Sequence record: PQ417132.1
Length of the DNA: 44,205 nt
From: Escherichia phage vB_VIPECOTH07
Reading direction: 5' to 3' (one strand)
In this document: piece by piece, positions 970 through 32,773 of the stretch
How the letters are laid out: the number at the start of each line of letters is the position of its first letter
How positions within the stretch are numbered: the stretch's first letter is position 1
Position numbers and translations under genes: made by a program
Notes under the pieces: model-generated
Databases searched by the model: none
The model's input: the letters and a program-made list of their open reading frames with translations, nothing else
Told to the model about the DNA's origin: nothing

Positions 970-1166
970 TCTGGTGCAATCTCCGATACACTAAGAATAA
1001 TCACTTCTGCGCCGTTGGGGAGAGACTTTGCAATGTCCTGTTCAATTTCCCTTAGTGCGTTGTAGGTGAATTTATCACTGTCGATAAGTACTTGTTCAGT
1101 ATTCCCAAACCCCCTACGTCCGGTATTGTCTGCCCAGTTGAAACCAATTAAGAAGTGTTTCGTCAT
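966..1166 (-). CDS. hypothetical protein
   Basis: ORF track 966..1187; ATG at 1166 preceded by GAGGAA. No recognisable motif. Confidence 0.4.
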   Translation of the reverse strand: MTKHFLIGFNWADNTGRRGFGNTEQVLIDSDKFTYNALREIEQDIAKSLPNGAEVIILSVSEIAPE

Positions 1167-1332
1167 AAGAAATTCCTCGTTGTCCACATCGCATTCGGAT
1201 ATTTGTTATCGCGGTCCTGCACCACGGAAATCATGTTCCCGCGTTGCACCAGGCAGAAGTGGCGTTGTTGCTCGCCGTTGTAGCGGCGCCAGATTGCCTC
1301 TTCGATTGCCGCGTTGATGTCACTGAACATTC

Positions 1333-2060: not shown

Positions 2061-2254
2061 TCTACAATCTCCCATTTAACGCCGTGGAAGCCATCACCTT
2101 CATCGTTACCAAAGTCTATGAAAATATAGCAGTCGTCGTCGGAGTCTATATAACCGAAACCAGTAGCTGTCGGGTTGTACACATCGTACACTTTACCCTC
2201 TGTCACATAGTCAAGGGCGGCTAACCAGAGAATTTTAGCGGCTTTAACTTTCAT
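2057..2254 (-). CDS. hypothetical protein
   Basis: ATG at 2254 with SD GGAGAG; ATGA-coupled to neighbours. Confidence 0.45.
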   Translation of the reverse strand: MKVKAAKILWLAALDYVTEGKVYDVYNPTATGFGYIDSDDDCYIFIDFGNDEGDGFHGVKWEIVE

Positions 2255-2460
2255 TTCTTCTCTCCTGCAAACTTAAATTTAGCCTCGAACTCCTTTCTAC
2301 CAACACAATATTCTGAATAGGATTCATTGAATTTCATCAATGGGTAGTCGGCGATAAGTACGTGGTCCAACCCAACCGCAGTTACAATGAAACTAACTTC
2401 ACCTACATCACCCCACGAGTAATTACTCTTATAGATGCCACCAACGATAACGTCGATCAT
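2251..2460 (-). CDS. hypothetical protein
   Basis: ATG at 2460 with SD GGAGAG; overlaps upstream stop. Confidence 0.45.
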   Translation of the reverse strand: MIDVIVGGIYKSNYSWGDVGEVSFIVTAVGLDHVLIADYPLMKFNESYSEYCVGRKEFEAKFKFAGEKK

Positions 2461-2606
2461 TTCTTCTCTCCTGCATAAGCTGCTTTCAGTGTCTGCATCG
2501 CGGCGAACCAGAATGCAGCCGCTGGGATGCTGTTGCTCAGGTTGCTAACGGCGATGCGTGCCATCAGTTGTGCGTCTTTGAATGCTTCGATATCTGTAAT
2601 TTTCAT
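2457..2606 (-). CDS. hypothetical small protein (~49 aa)
   Basis: Hand-translated MKITDIEAFKDAQLMARIAVSNLSNSIPAAAFWFAAMQTLKAAYAGEKK; ATG at 2606 overlaps upstream stop (TAATG), stop overlaps next ATG. Confidence 0.3.
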   Translation of the reverse strand: MKITDIEAFKDAQLMARIAVSNLSNSIPAAAFWFAAMQTLKAAYAGEKK

Positions 2607-2803
2607 TAGTTATTCTCCAGTATTTCTAACGCTTTCACGAGGTAACGTTTACGTAAAACATCAGTCTGCGCGCTATTAGCCCTGCGTATGTAGCCCGCAG
2701 CAGCCCTCATCTGTAGTTTTTCCACCGAACCATTCCCTATAACTGATGCGATACATTTAACTTCGAGTTCTTCGGTTATTTCTATCGTCGATACGTTGCC
2801 CAT
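2606..2803 (-). CDS. hypothetical protein (first gene of operon)
   Basis: ATG at 2803 with SD GGAG; directly downstream of promoter at 2838..2866. Confidence 0.45.
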   Translation of the reverse strand: MGNVSTIEITEELEVKCIASVIGNGSVEKLQMRAAAGYIRRANSAQTDVLRKRYLVKALEILENN

Positions 2804-25347: not shown

Positions 25348-25874
25348 GTGGTCAACAGGCCGCGTAATAACGGTATCTCTTTAGGTGTCATCAGTATACC
25401 AGTGCTTCGTTGGTTCAGCATAGGTGTACCGACATCTGCGGAAAACTCGCCTTTCTCCTGATTGATGGCCTGTAACTCGTACACGACAGGGCCGTCCGCA
25501 GGATAAGACAGGTCGGTGCCGACGTAACGGCGGAATACAAACTTCGGCAACTCGGTGTTACTCATCGGGATTTTATCCATCTCATCATCAAGTTGATTGA
25601 GAATATCCGGTAGTGTAAACGTCGTCGTCTGGTCCATATCGCTGTTGTTAGCGGCCCCGGACGCCTCCATCGGGGTGGGTTCGAATGTGATAGTTTCGCC
25701 GGTTTCCAGTGTCGCCGTAAGTTCCTGTAGCCCACGAACAAGATAGTACGTCTTTGACAACAACGGGTGGCTGATTTGCAACGTGATGTAGTCTATCTCG
25801 CCGTCGGGATTTGATGCCAACTTACGGCGATAGGCAGCTTCTACTGATTCCTGACTCATTGCATCGGGTCCCAA
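25344..25874 (-). CDS. minor tail protein (L-like, by position)
   Basis: Synteny in tail tip module; no motif verified. Confidence 0.4.
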   Translation of the reverse strand: MGPDAMSQESVEAAYRRKLASNPDGEIDYITLQISHPLLSKTYYLVRGLQELTATLETGETITFEPTPMEASGAANNSDMDQTTTFTLPDILNQLDDEMDKIPMSNTELPKFVFRRYVGTDLSYPADGPVVYELQAINQEKGEFSADVGTPMLNQRSTGILMTPKEIPLLRGLLTT

Positions 25875-26356
25875 ATTCGTGGAAACGTTGATTGTGCGGT
25901 TCCGTAGGCTTTAAGGAAACTACCCAGACAATCCCCGTAACAGCCGTACAAATCTGGCAGATTGTTAATCAGGCACTGGTTCTCAAGGTCCTGGAACGGC
26001 GATTTCTCGGCGGTTGCCGTGAAGGTAATTGTCCAGTTAATCCCGTCTTCGGTGGACTCAGCGATAGTGGACGTAATGGTTACCTGATAATCTTCGATGC
26101 CCATGCCGAAGTCGTGCGCCATCCAGAAACTTGACGCACCGCCATCGACTTTCTCAAGGAACGACAGGAACGCCTGCCGCCCTAGTGCTGAGGTAATCAG
26201 GGTTACGCTTATTGGGAACACGTCGTAATACGTGTCGCGCCCCTGGCGCACTCCGCCGCCAGCTAAATCAACGCTCCAGACGTTGTTACGTCGGGTCATT
26301 GAGTAGCCTTTCGACACCACCGGCTTTAAACTTGCTGGAAATTTCAAAGAAGACAT
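25856..26356 (-). CDS. minor / distal tail protein (M-like, by position)
   Basis: ATG at 26356 with AGGAG upstream; follows tape measure gene apart from the inserted plus-strand gene. Confidence 0.4.
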   Translation of the reverse strand: MSSLKFPASLKPVVSKGYSMTRRNNVWSVDLAGGGVRQGRDTYYDVFPISVTLITSALGRQAFLSFLEKVDGGASSFWMAHDFGMGIEDYQVTITSTIAESTEDGINWTITFTATAEKSPFQDLENQCLINNLPDLYGCYGDCLGSFLKAYGTAQSTFPRIWDPMQ

Positions 26357-26391
26357 GGCAGGATACTCCTATTAGTTTAGGAGATACTAAC

Positions 26392-27042
26392 ATGATGCCA
26401 ACCGAAAAAGTAGCCAAGAGCATGTGGCTGCGTGCGAATTATCCTGCGAACAAAAGCAGCAAAACTAAGCGTGCAACTATATGCGATTTTGGCATAAATG
26501 ACGCCGATTATGTGGTTAGCCCCGAGATAAACGGCAACCGTGAGACGTGTCTGGCGTACGCTACATGGCGAGGGATGATCCAACGTTGCGTGGACGCCGA
26601 GTATAAAAACAAAAGGCCTGCGTACAGGGATGTAACTGTGTGGCATGGGTGGCAAAGGTTTATGTCCTTCCGTAGATGGTGGCTTTGTAATTATGTGGAG
26701 GGATGGGAGCTAGATAAGGATATATTCTCTGGTATTAATAAGGTATACAGCCCTACCACTTGCATCTTCATCCCTAAATGGCTGAATGTTTTCCTAAAGG
26801 AAAAGAAAAATAGGGGAACACCTACGGGTGTTTTTTATGAAGAATCTAGAGGTAAATTTAAAGCCTCAGTGAGCTATGATAAAAAAACTATTAATCTAGG
26901 ACGTTTTGAAACTCAGGAAGAAGCGCTAGATGCTTACATTGCTGAAAAGATAAGGGTGGCGGAATCAAGAAGATGTGAGATAGAGGCGATAAGGGAAGGT
27001 ATGTTCGACCGCGTTATCGCCTTGATAAAAGAGGGTCGTTAG
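26392..27042 (+). mobile_element. AP2-domain protein, probable free-standing homing-endonuclease-like gene
   Basis: C-terminal TGVFYEESRGKFKASVSYDKKTINLGRFETQEEALDAYIAEKIR is an AP2 domain. ATG at 26392 with AGGAG upstream (track 26212). Opposite strand inside the tail operon. No HNH or GIY-YIG catalytic motif confirmed. Confidence 0.5.
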
Positions 27043-27058
27043 CCCAGAGGCTGGAGAA

Positions 27059-27088
27059 ATAAGGCCCTTTCGGGCCTTTATGTTATTA
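27059..27088. terminator. bidirectional hairpin terminator
   Basis: AAGGCCC-tttc-GGGCCTT between convergent gene 26392..27042 (+) and tape measure (-). Confidence 0.55.
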
Positions 27089-29425
27089 CTTAAAGCCAGG
27101 TGCGTTTCTTGTAGCCTTCCTCGCTTTCGATATTTTGCTGTTGCTGTTCTGTAGCGAAGCAGCCACCTGCTCTTCTATGATGATGCGCAAACGGCCTTCG
27201 TCATCCTGCTCGGTAGATACGTTGCCAATCTGACTCGATGTGTTATTTACAATGGTAACATTAGATGGGCCAGAAGAAGACCCATTTTGCCCCATAATTT
27301 CTTTCATCTGCTGCGCAGTTCGTACGCGCGATGCACCAGCAGGCATGATAACTTCTGGTTTACCGCGTTCGGCGATGGTGGAAGCCTGCCCTGCGGATAA
27401 CTGTCCGCCCTGCTCACGAGCGGACCTGATAGCGGAAATCTGCGCCATACCCGCCCCGACGGCAGCGGCAGCGGCTACAGGGGCCAGGAACGGGCCGACT
27501 ACAGGGATAGCCGCCGTTGATTTATACGCCTCAATAGCTGCGGTGTACGTGGCAATAGTGGCCTGTACGATAGCGAATGCCTTATACGCGCCAGAAGCCT
27601 CACCCAACGCAGACCCGATGTTTGAGGCCATGTTGCCAAAGGCCGTTGCCGTTGCGTCGGCGCGCTTCGTAGCATACTGCTCATTGATAGCGTTAAGCGC
27701 CGCCTGATACTGTTTCTCGCTAATCAAACCCTGCTCGCGGTACTTATCCGCTACCGCCAGTTTCTGCTGTTCCTGGATGTCGAGAAGCTCAAGCTCGGTG
27801 GCATTCTGACCCATAATCTGGGCCATGAAGTCTTCACCTTTCTGGTTCTTTTCCTGCCGTTCTTTCTCTCGCTTGGCGAGTTCTTCCTGTCGTGCGGTGT
27901 CAGCTTCCAGCATAATTTGAGTTTTGGCGTTCTCGTATTGCTGGTCGCTAAGAAGCTGGTTGCCGTAAAACTCTTGTAGCTTGGTTAACTGTTGCTCCTG
28001 ATTAGCTTCTATTTTCTGGAATACATCATCATTGAGATGAATAGACTGGTAGTAGAAATCCTCAGCGGCTTTCTTCTGGCGCTCGAACGCATCCGCGGCT
28101 TTCTTAGCGGCTTTTGCCCCCGCGCTATCATCCTCGGACCCGCCACCAGTACCGGTTACCTTAAATTTACTAAGCCCTTCTGCCTTAGCGGCTTCTTTGT
28201 CGATGTCATATGCCGCGCGTTTAAGCGCGACGATATTTTGCTGAGCCTCCACCTGTTCGCGGAAACTTTTACGGGTCAGGTCCGCAACATCACGCTGAGT
28301 ATCCAGTGCCATACCCAGCTGGAAGTTAATGTTTTTTGCTACGTCTACCGATTCACCTGGTGTGAAGGCTGCTTTCACCAACCGGCCAGCATCCTGCGCC
28401 CCTTTAACCATATCTTCAAAGAAACGCTCCATCGCGGTAAATTCTTCCGCGATGAAATCTAGCGCATCGGCGGCTGATTCTGCGATGGTTGTCGCCGTTT
28501 GTTCACCGCTATCGGTGATACTTTTACTGCTAAAATCCCAGAGTTCATTCAGCCCGTTTATCGCGTCGCCTACGAAACCAAATGCCGCGTCGAACGACAT
28601 CTCTATCGCGCTTCCTACTTCCGACGCGATGTCACCCCACATACGCATCTCTGCGGCAAGTTCACCGGATGCAACCTGTGCGTTAAGTTCCTGGATTAAA
28701 TCATCGATGTACCGGATAGGTTCCGCAAGAGCACCAACATCAAGGCTGGTAGCCAGTGTCATTTTTAACTGCGACCAGGAATCGCTGGCACTGGCGATAG
28801 CCCCATTAAGCGTGTTAGCCTGGTCCGCCATAGCCCCAGCGAAGTTTACGTTACCAATGTTGAGCAGGTATTGCTCGATATCGGCAGCGCTCTTCTTAAC
28901 CACCGTAGTAGTGCCCTGGAATGTAAATTCAACATCGTCTTTGTTCTGCTTAGCCTTGATGCCGAATTCTTTAAGGCGCTCAAATTCAAACGTACTGGCG
29001 TCCGCAACGGCCTCAATCATCTGATTTAGGTCTTTACCCATAGCAGCGGCGGTGTTGCCATAGGAGCGCAACGCTTCTTCTGATGGTGTAAGACCAAGCG
29101 CCACAAGTTTACGGAATCCCTCTACTGCCTGTTCAAGACCATACGGAGTGTCGCGCGCGAAGTCTTGCAGGATGCTTAATGCCTGTCTTGCCCCCTGCGT
29201 GCTTCCGGTTAGTGTTTTCAGGCTGGCGGACATCTTATCCAGTTGCCGTTGGGAGTCTACTAGTTCCTGTGCGGCCTTGTACGCGGTAGCAGCGACGATG
29301 GAAGCGAGGCCCGCTACCGCGGCCCCGGCTACCTTTGCGGACTTGGAAAGGTTATCAAGACGGTCTGAGGTAGCTTTCGCGCCTTGCTCTGATACTTTTA
29401 CAACTAAACTAGCTACATCAGCCAT
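27086..29425 (-). CDS. tail tape measure protein
   Basis: 779 aa, Ala/Gln-rich coiled-coil composition, follows tail chaperone genes. Confidence 0.85.
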   Translation of the reverse strand: MADVASLVVKVSEQGAKATSDRLDNLSKSAKVAGAAVAGLASIVAATAYKAAQELVDSQRQLDKMSASLKTLTGSTQGARQALSILQDFARDTPYGLEQAVEGFRKLVALGLTPSEEALRSYGNTAAAMGKDLNQMIEAVADASTFEFERLKEFGIKAKQNKDDVEFTFQGTTTVVKKSAADIEQYLLNIGNVNFAGAMADQANTLNGAIASASDSWSQLKMTLATSLDVGALAEPIRYIDDLIQELNAQVASGELAAEMRMWGDIASEVGSAIEMSFDAAFGFVGDAINGLNELWDFSSKSITDSGEQTATTIAESAADALDFIAEEFTAMERFFEDMVKGAQDAGRLVKAAFTPGESVDVAKNINFQLGMALDTQRDVADLTRKSFREQVEAQQNIVALKRAAYDIDKEAAKAEGLSKFKVTGTGGGSEDDSAGAKAAKKAADAFERQKKAAEDFYYQSIHLNDDVFQKIEANQEQQLTKLQEFYGNQLLSDQQYENAKTQIMLEADTARQEELAKREKERQEKNQKGEDFMAQIMGQNATELELLDIQEQQKLAVADKYREQGLISEKQYQAALNAINEQYATKRADATATAFGNMASNIGSALGEASGAYKAFAIVQATIATYTAAIEAYKSTAAIPVVGPFLAPVAAAAAVGAGMAQISAIRSAREQGGQLSAGQASTIAERGKPEVIMPAGASRVRTAQQMKEIMGQNGSSSGPSNVTIVNNTSSQIGNVSTEQDDEGRLRIIIEEQVAASLQNSNSKISKARKATRNAPGFK

Positions 29426-30199: not shown

Positions 30200-30306
30200 T
30201 CTTTAATCCTTTGGTTAAGAGGTTACTGGTTAAGGTTAATGCGCCAGACGGGAACCACCCGCTTTTCGTGTGCGACACTAGGCGCAAAATAATTCTAACA
30301 CATTAC

Positions 30307-30335
30307 TTGCACACCCCAACATAATAGGATACTAT
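30307..30335 (+). promoter_or_regulatory. promoter TTGCAC-N17-TACTAT with dyad AATAG-N4-CTATT
   Basis: ACTTGCACACCCCAACATAATAGGATACTATTCACTTA; near-identical to the minus-strand copies at 5415 and 6911; SD AGGAG then ATG 30377. Confidence 0.6.
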
Positions 30336-30348
30336 TCACTTACACCAA
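30321..30348 (-). promoter_or_regulatory. candidate divergent promoter for tail chaperone operon (TTGGTG-N16-TATTAT)
   Basis: Reverse strand of the same element reads GTGTAAGTGAATAGTATCCTATTATGTT, resembling the 10371 and 13360 promoters; lies upstream of gene 30199 on minus strand. Confidence 0.35.
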
Positions 30349-30376
30349 CAATGTTAACTCAAACAGGAGCTACCCC

Positions 30377-30568
30377 ATGACAGGTATTACTATGTTCTTC
30401 TTAATCATTATCGTTTTAGTTTATTTTATCCCATTTCTCGTGGCGCATATGCGCAACCATAAAGCTAAATTAGCGATATTCATGGCTAATCTGTTTCTCG
30501 GTTGGGTTCTGCTGCCGTGGGTATTTATTTTAATCTGGGCGTGCAACTCGAATGTCAAAGAGAAGTGA
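30377..30568 (+). CDS. small two-TM membrane protein, superinfection-immunity (Imm)-like
   Basis: IPFLVAHMRNHKAKLAIFMANLFLGWVLLPWVFILIWAC matches the Imm-like consensus pattern from memory; two hydrophobic helices. Confidence 0.45.
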   Translation: MTGITMFFLIIIVLVYFIPFLVAHMRNHKAKLAIFMANLFLGWVLLPWVFILIWACNSNVKEK

Positions 30569-30606
30569 GCTAGTATAGGACAAATCCTAAACACGAGGAA
30601 GTAAGC

Positions 30607-31737
30607 ATGGCCCAGAAGAAAATAACCGACGAACAGTTACAGGAAGAATTGAACGCCGGGATGAAGAATGTAGACATCGCCCGTAAATACGGCATCTCAG
30701 ACCGAGTTATTCGTATCCGTAAAGCGAAGCTGGCTAAGAAAGGTGTAGGCCACGGGCGTGACGTTAGCCACCTTGTACCAGATGGCTACAAGATTAAAGG
30801 CACATCGTCGCTGGTTGATGAGTTCGGCAACACTAAGTTGCAATGGGTTAAGACCGACACCGATGCCGAACGTCAGGTCGAGTTGATGAAAGCCATAATC
30901 GAGGGCATGAAGTCGGAGATTACCCCCGTTGCTCCTGTTAAAGCCGTTCGCGCCAAACGGGACGACAAGCTACTCAACCTTTACACTGTGTCTGATTTCC
31001 ATCTCGGTATGCTGGCCTGGGCCGACGAGAGTGGCGACGACTGGGATATGAAGATTGCAGAAGACCTGTTCTCCCGTTGGTTCGATGCGGCATTCCAGAA
31101 AGCACCGGATGCGGGGACTGGGGTTATTAACCTGCTGGGCGACTTCGCGCACTTCGATAGTCTGGTTGCCGTTACACCTGCAAGCGGTCACGCCCTTGAC
31201 GCCGACACCCGTTACCAGAAACTTGTCCGCTACATGATTCGCATGGTCCGCCGTGTTGTCGATATGGCGCTGGTTAAGCATAAAAATGTTCGCTTGCTTA
31301 TCGTGCAAGGGAATCACGACGAAAGTGGCATGATTTGGTTGGCTGAGATGTTCAGTACGCTGTATGACAATGAGCCGCGTGTGTTCGTCGATACGTCACC
31401 GGATGTTTACAAGATGGTGCAACACGGCAAAACGACGCTGTTCTTCCATCACGGGCATAAAGCACGATTCGACGCTATTGAACCTGTTATGATTGCCAAG
31501 TTCCGTAAAGCGTTCGGCGAGAGTGTTTACAGCTACGCCCACGTAGGCCATCTGCACCACCAGAAGATTGTAGAAAGCCGTAACATGATTGTTGAGCAAC
31601 ACCGCACCTTAGCGGCTAAAGACGCCTACGCCTCCCGCGGAGGTTGGATGTCGGGCCGTAGTGCAAATGTAATTACTTATAGCGCCGAATTTGGCGAGGT
31701 CGCACGTTTAACTATTTCACCGGAGATGCTGGGATGA
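30607..31737 (+). CDS. HTH-fused calcineurin-like metallophosphoesterase (SbcD/Mre11-like motifs)
   Basis: N-terminal HTH KNVDIARKYGISDRVIRIRK; phosphoesterase motifs VSDFHLG, LGDFAHFD, QGNHDE, FFHHGH, VGHLHH. Confidence 0.75.
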   Translation: MAQKKITDEQLQEELNAGMKNVDIARKYGISDRVIRIRKAKLAKKGVGHGRDVSHLVPDGYKIKGTSSLVDEFGNTKLQWVKTDTDAERQVELMKAIIEGMKSEITPVAPVKAVRAKRDDKLLNLYTVSDFHLGMLAWADESGDDWDMKIAEDLFSRWFDAAFQKAPDAGTGVINLLGDFAHFDSLVAVTPASGHALDADTRYQKLVRYMIRMVRRVVDMALVKHKNVRLLIVQGNHDESGMIWLAEMFSTLYDNEPRVFVDTSPDVYKMVQHGKTTLFFHHGHKARFDAIEPVMIAKFRKAFGESVYSYAHVGHLHHQKIVESRNMIVEQHRTLAAKDAYASRGGWMSGRSANVITYSAEFGEVARLTISPEMLG

Positions 31738-32219
31738 AAGATATTGTAATTTTCGATTTAGACGGGACATTGGCGGATGGGACACATCGTTTGCACCTGC
31801 TGCCGAAAGATAACTACAACGAAACATGGGCGTGGAAGCCCTTTAACATGGCGTGCAAAGATGATGAACCAATTAGAGATAACATAGAACTGTGTAACGC
31901 CCTCAATCGTCGCTATGCCGTTATCATTTTAACGGGCCGTAGTGATGATGCAGAAAAAGAAACCAGAATGTGGTTGCAGCGCCACCGCGTCGAATTTTAT
32001 CAGCTAATCATGCGCAGCAAACACGACAACAGAAAAGACATCGTAATTAAAGAAGAGGTGTTGCGTGCTATTGGGCTGGAAAGAATCTTGTGTGCATTCG
32101 ACGACTCGCCAGCGGTAATAAAGCATTTCCGCGAACTCGGCATAACCACTCACGCGGTTACTGAATACGACTGTAACGGGAACTCTACACACTTAAAACC
32201 ACATGGGAGCGATAAATAA
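31734..32219 (+). CDS. HAD-superfamily phosphatase (polynucleotide 3'-phosphatase-like)
   Basis: Motif I IVIFDLDGTLADG; remaining pattern (ILTGRSDDAEKE...NRKDIVIKEEV...AFDDSPAVI) resembles the phosphatase domain of phage polynucleotide kinase-phosphatase as recalled. Confidence 0.65.
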   Translation: MKDIVIFDLDGTLADGTHRLHLLPKDNYNETWAWKPFNMACKDDEPIRDNIELCNALNRRYAVIILTGRSDDAEKETRMWLQRHRVEFYQLIMRSKHDNRKDIVIKEEVLRAIGLERILCAFDDSPAVIKHFRELGITTHAVTEYDCNGNSTHLKPHGSDK

Positions 32220-32773
32220 TGGCTAAGGTAATTATTCTTAATGGCCCTGCGGGTTGCGGGAAAGACACGCTTGCTATGGCACTGGTAGAAATGGGCTTTG
32301 CGAAAGGAACTACCAGTTTCAAGAATCCGATGTTCAATATCGCTATGGCTGCGTTAGGCCCGGATGCTTACCACGAGTTTCTCGACGGCTACGACGACCG
32401 GGCCAGGAAAGAAAAGCCAGAAGGTTTCCTTAATGGGTTGTCGCGCCGTCGGTTCATGATTGCTATCTCTGAACAATTCATTAAACCGGCCCTCGGCAGC
32501 GATTATTTCGGTAAATATCTCGCTGAAAACTTGCCTGACGGCGACGAAGTTTTTGTAGTGTCCGACGGTGGATTCGCCAGTGAAGTGGTCCCTATCGTCG
32601 CCGCTGGGCATGACGTAAGAATTGTTCGCTTGCACAGAGACGGCTATACGTTTGAAGGGGACAGCCGTGGCTATCTGTATGGCGTTGATGGTGTAAAAGA
32701 TTACGACACCTACATCATACCAGGTGACGTTAAATCGAACGTTATAGACATTGCTTTAAAATTAGGTTTGTAG
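32219..32773 (+). CDS. P-loop kinase (dNMP kinase-like or polynucleotide kinase-like)
   Basis: Walker A GPAGCGKDT; GKD variant and downstream pattern recall phage dNMP kinases. Confidence 0.6.
   Translation: MAKVIILNGPAGCGKDTLAMALVEMGFAKGTTSFKNPMFNIAMAALGPDAYHEFLDGYDDRARKEKPEGFLNGLSRRRFMIAISEQFIKPALGSDYFGKYLAENLPDGDEVFVVSDGGFASEVVPIVAAGHDVRIVRLHRDGYTFEGDSRGYLYGVDGVKDYDTYIIPGDVKSNVIDIALKLGL

Follow-up and report, generated by a model that had tools for sequence, protein, structure and literature searches.

The gene at positions 26392..27042 (+ strand) of Escherichia phage vB_VIPECOTH07 is probably a free-standing IPA-HNH homing endonuclease gene that resides at the junction between the tape measure and minor tail genes of Guernseyvirinae phages. 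The DNA that was analyzed, called the window here, is the entire 44,205-nucleotide stretch in sequence record PQ417132.1. Its source genome is that of a Kagunavirus (Guernseyvirinae) coliphage, and the region around the inserted gene is 99.5% identical to that of Escherichia phage vB_EcoS_XY1 (XY1). A homing-endonuclease-like insertion had originally been predicted at this location, and the proposal is now supported by an insertion polymorphism at an exact junction, recoded flanks linked to the gene, fidelity to one site, purifying selection, and membership in a family of putative homing endonucleases.

A plus-strand gene within a minus-strand tail operon

The inserted gene is an open reading frame of 216 amino acids with an ATG ATG start and a TAG stop. 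It is antisense to both of its neighbors, which are the tape measure protein gene (27086..29425, - strand; phrog_1538, E 4e-207) and a gene for a minor tail or virion structural protein of 166 amino acids (25856..26356, - strand; phrog_384, E 4e-38). Tail genes matching phrog_396 and phrog_329 lie beyond the minor tail gene. The open reading frame and the annotation of its neighbors bear out the view that a plus-strand gene interrupts a minus-strand tail operon, and the ribosome binding site of its own that had been attributed to this gene was found as an AGGAG sequence at 26379..26383, located 8 nt 5' of the ATG. The G+C content of the inserted gene (0.44) is below that of the window (0.508) and falls locally to 0.39-0.41. 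No second copy of the gene was found when the window was scanned.

Two further observations concern the surrounding structural genes. The minor tail protein is 466 amino acids long in XY1 (L001 1364..2764) versus 166 in the window (25856..26356, - strand), and the two genomes are otherwise about 99.5-100% identical around this gene. The extension of approximately 900 bp in XY1 matches phrog_11600 and a tail protein family, and the long and short forms are scattered across Kagunaviruses independently of the inserted gene. In addition, a second plus-strand block (30607..32773) is present inside the minus-strand structural module of the window, flanked by the tail assembly chaperone genes on one side and the tail tube gene on the other, and G+C content drops to 0.39 directly upstream of it (30200..30650). 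The products of this block match phrog_704 (DNA repair exonuclease/metallophosphoesterase), phrog_415 (polynucleotide kinase), and phrog_139 (dNMP kinase). The equivalent region of phage fPoEco01 instead carries a paralog of the inserted gene, two small open reading frames, and a superinfection immunity gene, and this difference in gene content indicates a variable accessory-gene slot.

Empty and filled forms of the junction

The case is strongest where mobility of the gene is concerned. In the gene-less phages KMB36, 22664BS2, VIPECOMC04, and fPoEco01, the stop codon of the tape measure gene overlaps the start codon of the minor tail gene in the sequence TAATG (AAGTAATGA). A 729-bp insert is situated exactly at this TAATG junction in the window, XY1, SHAK7693, and fEg-Eco19. 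Across the phage collection, the junction is empty and contiguous in 89 records and filled in 6, the latter being XY1 and fEg-Eco19 (a GenBank and a RefSeq record for each), SHAK7693, and Esher4. Relatives were to be checked for absence of the gene at this junction according to the original prediction, which named presence in all relatives as evidence against it, and the gene is absent from those 89 records. A search of the window for the empty-site sequence revealed no copy.

A junction of a third kind is carried by Escherichia phage vB_EcoS-UTI89UKE1 (L016, MZ234048) at 1161..1290, which is equivalent to window positions 26356/27086. In this hybrid, the tape measure 3' end is of the recoded type otherwise linked to the gene (98% identical to that of fEg-Eco19), but the gene itself is missing. 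The tape measure gene is followed by a 45-bp spacer, then by a remnant 'GGTTCAAATAATG', and then by a minor tail start of the gene-less type. No similarity to the cassette was found for the 45-bp spacer, and the hybrid junction was the only one of its kind in 50,697 phage records. It could be the footprint of a gene loss or the product of partial conversion, and it may represent an allele that is gene-less and yet resistant to cleavage.

One of the gene-carrying records has an unexpected classification. SHAK7693 (L004, OR594180, vB_EcoM_SHAK7693) is assigned to Autographiviridae/Kayfunavirus in the taxonomy line of its record and bears a name that implies a myovirus, while its sequence at the junction is collinear with Kagunavirus siphoviruses. 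On this basis, the database entry is probably mislabeled.

Recoded flanks and the inherited cassette

The inserted gene does not travel by itself. Fixed differences between gene-carrying and gene-less alleles are confined to a mobile cassette (26327..27137) that comprises the gene, both spacers, approximately the first 10 codons of the minor tail gene, and approximately the last 17 codons of the tape measure gene, with the codons on both sides recoded. About 50 bp of recoded flank accompanies the gene on each side, and outside the cassette the window matches the gene-less KMB36 and VIPECOMC04.

In the tape measure gene, the recoded 3' end (27086..27137, - strand), presumed to be a cleavage-immune version of the target, has 12 fixed differences from gene-less alleles, all of which are synonymous. 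These fall at -52 to -10 from the end of the gene and include replacement of the serine codon AGC by TCG and of the arginine codon CGC by AGG. When the last 20 tape measure codons are compared to those of the window, gene-less genomes (n=4) differ at 15-17 nt, again always synonymously, whereas gene-carrying genomes differ at 0-4 nt. The relationship is reversed for codons -60..-41, where the window is identical to the gene-less KMB36 and VIPECOMC04 and differs from the gene-carrying SHAK7693 and fEg-Eco19 by 24-25 nt. The protein sequence at the tape measure end is identical in all eight of the genomes compared, and the 12 synonymous changes illustrate how an element of this kind can rewrite the end of an essential tail gene and leave its protein unaltered.

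In the minor tail gene, the recoded 5' end (26321..26356, - strand) encodes MSSLKFPASLKP, versus MSDLYFPRSL(K/R)P in gene-less phages. Codons 2-12 differ between gene-carrying and gene-less alleles, with three amino acid changes. This gene-linked end is nearly identical in DNA sequence to those of metagenomic contigs whose copies of the gene are 56-80% identical to the one in the window. Flank phylogeny is discordant with gene presence.

The two forms of the flanks also differ in composition. G+C content is 0.41 in the gene-linked flanks versus 0.48-0.52 in the empty allele, and the gene-linked form has lost several of the G+C-rich boxes (GGCCCGCAAGGCC, GCGCCGGGG, GCCTCCGCCC) that are found in the empty allele. 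AP2 domains are described as favoring G+C-rich DNA (PMC10448857; bioRxiv 10.64898/2026.02.23.707548), and the loss of these boxes would fit a loss of AP2 binding sites.

Short linked flanks would also result if a neutral accessory gene were exchanged by ordinary homologous recombination, which counts against regarding homing as demonstrated. Recombination of this sort is part of the main rival to the homing endonuclease reading, wherein the protein is a domesticated or never-catalytic DNA-binding protein. Its N-terminal domain would then be a second DNA-binding or dimerization module, and the whole would be a site-specific repressor or regulator that controls, for instance, tail-gene expression or a competitor, in the manner of the CapR and CasPR AP2 proteins. 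The position of the gene, antisense to the late operon and adjoining two ribosome binding sites, speaks for such a role. However, a regulator has no need for synonymously recoded flanks that travel with it, and a gene that is needed should not be missing from about 94% of close relatives. We consider this alternative unlikely, albeit less so than the other rivals to homing that are weighed below.

Regulatory features of the spacers

Insertion at TAATG separates two genes whose start and stop codons overlap in the empty allele, and the spacer on the minor tail side includes features that bear on how the neighboring gene is expressed. A divergent Shine-Dalgarno pair forms the palindrome CTCCT-N8-AGGAG (26366..26383), which has a fold z score of -2.95 on the + strand. 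The AGGAG at 26379..26383 within it serves the inserted gene as its Shine-Dalgarno sequence. CTCCT (26366..26370), read on the other strand, supplies a new Shine-Dalgarno sequence for the minor tail gene, in which AGGAG is positioned 9 nt before the ATG. Judging from the sequence, this new element of the cassette replaces the translational coupling lost with TAATG and repairs the split operon.

The same spacer overlaps a low-confidence promoter candidate. A sigma-70-like site, TTGGCA-16-TAAACT (26374..26401, - strand), reads into the minor tail gene with 9 of 12 consensus matches, and one such site was found versus 2.3 expected in shuffled sequences, which is below chance expectation. This candidate might restore transcription downstream of the hairpin described below. 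It extends into the first codons of the inserted gene, and its equivalent in L011, as judged by eye, is TTGGTA-16-TAAAAT. A consensus scan for plus-strand sigma-70 promoters upstream of the inserted gene revealed none.

On the other side, a hairpin (AAGGCCC-TTTC-GGGCCTT; 27061..27078, + strand) with a 7-bp stem that includes five G-C pairs and a TTTC loop is located 3' of the stop codon of the inserted gene, between this codon and the stop codon of the tape measure gene. The original prediction had placed a bidirectional, insulating hairpin at 27059..27088. A hairpin does exist there, at the slightly narrower coordinates given above, but it scores as terminator-like only on the + strand. Its proposed function as a bidirectional insulator is only partly supported, given also that the 61-nt hairpin context folds no better than shuffled sequences (z -1.1 and -0.9) and that no hairpin is present in the diverged gene-carrying contigs L011, L013, and L014, where the spacer is 11-13 bp. 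Its absence from these diverged carriers indicates that the hairpin is a local accessory rather than a defining part of the element, and insulation is the weakest detail of the earlier account.

Site fidelity, paralogs, and selection

Homologs with 80%, 60%, and 56% identity to the inserted gene product (P0003, P0008, and P0011, respectively) are encoded at the same junction and in the same antisense orientation, in diverged Guernseyvirinae-like contigs whose tape measure proteins have different C-termini. More distant paralogs (34-36% identity) occupy other junctions of the tail module in related phages, including the 36%-identical paralog of fPoEco01, which is located after the tail tube gene. 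A further family member (34% identical, E 3e-31) is present at 2133..2759 (+ strand) of L014, the metagenomic contig ERZ14207130 NODE_62, where it is antisense between a peptidase-like gene and a DUF1833 tail gene. The same contig also carries a copy at the tape measure junction, which indicates two independent invasions of one tail operon.

The gene is under purifying selection. The alleles at this site are intact in 7 of 7 cases examined, and dN/dS is 0.07 relative to the 80%-identical homolog and 0.22 among close alleles. These data bear on the prospect that the gene is a decayed remnant, meaning a formerly active homing endonuclease gene that no longer cuts and that hitch-hikes in a few lineages. 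Homing endonuclease genes typically degenerate after fixation, this one is rare in Kagunavirus, and the recoded tape measure end that lacks the gene in UTI89UKE1 suggests that losses occur. Against such decay, the seven alleles are full-length and retain every residue that is invariant in the family, and the low dN/dS value for the 80%-identical homolog denotes continuing selection on the protein. A remnant is therefore quite improbable.

A further alternative is that the protein is a nuclease with a role other than homing, which attacks the DNA of competing phages, satellites, or the host, or which aids packaging or recombination, with its location being incidental. There are precedents for both activities, in that Odn of phage ICP1 is related to homing endonucleases and has been co-opted against satellites, as described by Barth et al. 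(PMC10448857), and HNH proteins can serve terminases. However, the junction is strictly kept across homologs that are 56-100% identical and is linked to flanks that look immune, which together argue that the target is the gene's own insertion site. Moreover, PADLOC returned no match and the terminase gene is not adjacent to the inserted gene. We regard this possibility as the least probable of those considered.

Protein domains and conserved residues

The protein has two parts. Its C-terminal portion is an AP2 DNA-binding domain (amino acids about 143-200; 26818..26991, + strand) with the expected fold of a three-stranded sheet plus a helix, which upholds the initial assignment of an AP2 domain to the C-terminal half. 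AP2 is also the sole Pfam match for the protein, and it is a weak one (amino acids 145-184, E 2e-4, below the gathering score). Searches of NCBIfam, PADLOC, and PDB sequences with the protein gave no match, and in PHROGs it belongs to phrog_953 ('HNH endonuclease') with an E value of 9e-64.

The N-terminal family domain (amino acids 26-140; 26467..26811, + strand) is presumed to be the catalytic module and is marked by the motifs GINDADY, CxxYxxWxxMxxRC, a W/F core, ELDKD, and NKVYSPxTCxF...N. Residues Y40, W59, R65, W87, F90, F93, W96, D108, K109, D110, Y119, and N132 are invariant in 79 homologs. Assignment of secondary structure in models by DSSP (strands 105-108 and 125-128, helix 129-136), together with the invariant columns, outlines a predicted beta-beta-alpha unit (amino acids 105-136; 26704..26799, + strand) that is a candidate metal-binding active site. 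The invariant D108-K109-D110 (26713..26721, + strand) ends a strand, and the invariant N132 (26785..26787, + strand) is on the helix.

A profile built from this domain matched 21,465 representative clusters (50% identity) at E<=1e-3 among 1.84 billion proteins, yet this family of more than 21,000 sequence clusters corresponds to no Pfam family. The best 150 matches are all close family members and provide no bridge to canonical nucleases, and no extra nuclease domain was detected by Pfam in the ten longest of these 150 relatives.

Long relatives provide a hint regarding which residues matter for activity. Four of the six that were read (P0121, P0122, P0179, and P0237) are tandem duplications of the unit formed by the N-terminal domain plus AP2. 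In each of these, D-K-D...N is kept in exactly one copy and lost from the other, and the degenerate copy still has the residues that determine the fold. Retention in a single copy is expected of catalytic rather than structural positions. The pattern suggests that these proteins are single-chain pseudo-dimers with one active site, and it is possible that they function as nickases.

Which nuclease type

The original prediction recognized no canonical catalytic motif in the N-terminal half and left the nuclease type unsettled, and the HMM searches it recommended for HNH and GIY-YIG folds have now been run with the same outcome. Neither Pfam nor NCBIfam reveals such a motif in the protein, and when 79 family members were scanned against Pfam at E<=1, no HNH, GIY-YIG, or other nuclease family was uncovered, the only matches being scattered, weak ones to DUF4170 and others. 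GIY-YIG, LAGLIDADG, and PD-(D/E)XK nucleases likewise had no sequence match in Pfam, NCBIfam, or the PDB. A PD-(D/E)XK reading of ELDKD was rejected by inspection, because the (D/E)-x-K spacing does not fit.

More sensitive comparisons were made specifically to I-HmuI and HNH_3. By hhalign, the family was aligned to the single I-HmuI sequence, to a 65-member I-HmuI family alignment, and to this alignment trimmed to the HNH_3 core. The seed of the family alignment was the I-HmuI sequence, confirmed to be that of 1U3E, and the comparison to the trimmed core used a 269-sequence alignment of the N-terminal domain. The probability was <=0.5% in all four set-ups. With no Pfam HNH match among the 79 members either, homology to HNH_3 is undemonstrated by sequence profile.

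Other clues do favor an HNH-like arrangement. In I-HmuI, the catalytic layout, which we take from the published structure to be D74-H75...N96, resembles the invariant residues on the beta-beta-alpha unit. As we read the motifs, D108...N132 are spaced by 24 residues on this unit versus 22 in I-HmuI. HNH nucleases (colicin E9, Cas8-HNH, PacI) account for 13 of the 20 sub-threshold matches obtained with Foldseek. A GenBank note on the 36%-identical Kagunavirus paralog of fPoEco01 records that HHpred matched it to the HNH motif of I-HmuI, and HHsearch matches to HNH are reported for the ICP1 homologs by Barth et al. (PMC10448857). The position of the general-base histidine of HNH nucleases is nevertheless occupied by an invariant lysine (K109) in 79 of 79 aligned homologs, and there is no conserved histidine anywhere in the N-terminal domain of these homologs. 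Weak structural similarity and the literature thus point to a beta-beta-alpha unit of a divergent, HNH-like (His-Me finger-like) type that would use lysine in place of the catalytic histidine. Because of the negative hhalign and Pfam results and the replacement of histidine by an invariant lysine, we treat the protein as HNH-type in its working and do not file it as a demonstrated member of the HNH family.

A more radical interpretation is that the N-terminal domain is a distinct putative nuclease module, either a 'Lys-metal finger' that lacks histidine and uses D-K-D...N chemistry, or a fold with no relation to HNH. This can be entertained only tentatively. If true, the empty and filled junctions of Kagunavirus would offer a natural substrate and its immune control.

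Some of these findings also speak for a protein that regulates rather than cuts. Nuclease homology is undetected by sequence (Pfam, NCBIfam, hhalign) and the catalytic histidine is missing. [quoted passage not shown] Yet the invariant acidic, lysine, and asparagine residues on a beta-beta-alpha unit, kept once per tandem duplicate, resemble an active site, and across many phage lineages the same family invades essential-gene junctions in multiple copies.

Proposed mechanism and significance

If the gene is a homing endonuclease gene as we favor, its spread can be envisioned as follows. When a cell is co-infected by a gene-carrying phage and one with an empty junction (...GCGCCGGGGTTCAAGTAATGAGCGAC...), the AP2 domain would bind this empty junction, where G+C-rich boxes are present, and the N-terminal domain would nick or cut nearby. 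The active site would be a divergent His-Me-finger-like beta-beta-alpha unit, in which D108 and N132 hold the metal and K109 replaces the usual histidine. Repair from the gene-carrying genome would then copy the gene along with about 50 bp of flank per side, and the recoded flanks would protect the carrier's own junction from being cut. Furthermore, the new ribosome binding site that the cassette supplies to the minor tail gene would compensate for the destroyed translational coupling, such that insertion might be nearly harmless.

The gene would in this case be selfish mobile DNA, which is routine for phages, and annotators already label its relatives 'HNH endonuclease'. The larger point is that a very large family has been named from bioinformatics alone, and that the label 'HNH endonuclease' for a putative catalytic center lacking histidine rests on prediction. 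The same 100-bp junction exists in a presumably sensitive form (89 records), a gene-carrying recoded form (6 records), and a gene-less half-recoded form (UTI89UKE1). All three occur in coliphages that are easily grown, and so the cleavage site, the determinants of immunity, and the frequency of homing are directly measurable.

Comparison to known systems

The closest known relatives are the IPA-HNH proteins, a putative homing endonuclease family named by Barth, Dunham & Seed (2023) from gp59, gp115-116, and gp209 of phage ICP1 (PMC10448857). According to these authors, the family is enriched in Barbaviruses and Flaumdraviruses and its genes cluster by essential genes, including those for tape measure proteins (PMC10448857). 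By tblastn, the protein encoded in the window matches ORF209 of ICP1 isolates (E 1e-14 to 6e-14, aa 56-212/214) as well as Barbaviruses and Flaumdraviruses. Its alignment to ORF209 (gp209), the ICP1 member covered in our comparison, reveals a common W/F core and common LDKD, CxF.P, and N motifs. By these sequence comparisons, the inserted gene belongs with the putative homing endonuclease genes of the IPA-HNH family. It shares with the members portrayed by Barth et al. an N-terminal domain unseen by Pfam HNH_3, a C-terminal AP2 domain, and a free-standing location beside essential genes. In the literature searched, no IPA-HNH member is reported to cut DNA or to have another biochemical activity.

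There are also differences from the ICP1 representatives. The protein is only about 33% identical to ORF209 and possesses an additional N-terminal motif, GINDADY, which is absent from ORF209. Its host is a small siphovirus (Kagunavirus), and the gene is antisense within a tail operon. In the passages of Barth et al. (PMC10448857) that were consulted, a site-specific cassette with recoded flanks is not described for the Kagunavirus group.

Two other enzymes offer partial parallels. PacI (PDB 3M7K/3LDY), an atypical HNH restriction endonuclease, exhibits 14% identity with a twilight-zone score. It is built on two Cys4 zinc sites and is without AP2, whereas the inserted protein has an aromatic core and two near-invariant cysteines. 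Another parallel is provided by I-HmuI of phage SPO1 (PDB 1U3E) and the other HNH_3-AP2 ('HNN-AP2') phage endonucleases (Magnani et al. 2004), in which a nuclease domain is followed by a DNA-binding domain, as is presumed here. Examples include genes of the Xanthomonas phage Xp10 type (PMC2248197), and they are also found free-standing in phage genomes. The inserted protein departs from I-HmuI in giving no NUMOD4 or HNH_3 match in Pfam and an hhalign probability of <1% against 65 I-HmuI relatives, and its family has an invariant lysine in place of the general-base histidine.

In genomic behavior, the inserted gene resembles the seg and mob genes of phage T4, which are likewise intercistronic between essential genes and sporadic among relatives. 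For these genes of T-even phages, short flanking tracts are co-converted, and polymorphic flanks protect the carrier. The T4 nucleases belong to different families from that of the inserted gene, being GIY-YIG proteins and HNH_3 proteins with a zinc finger. In addition, seg and mob genes are usually co-oriented with their neighbors, whereas the gene at the tape measure junction is antisense to the late operon it has entered.
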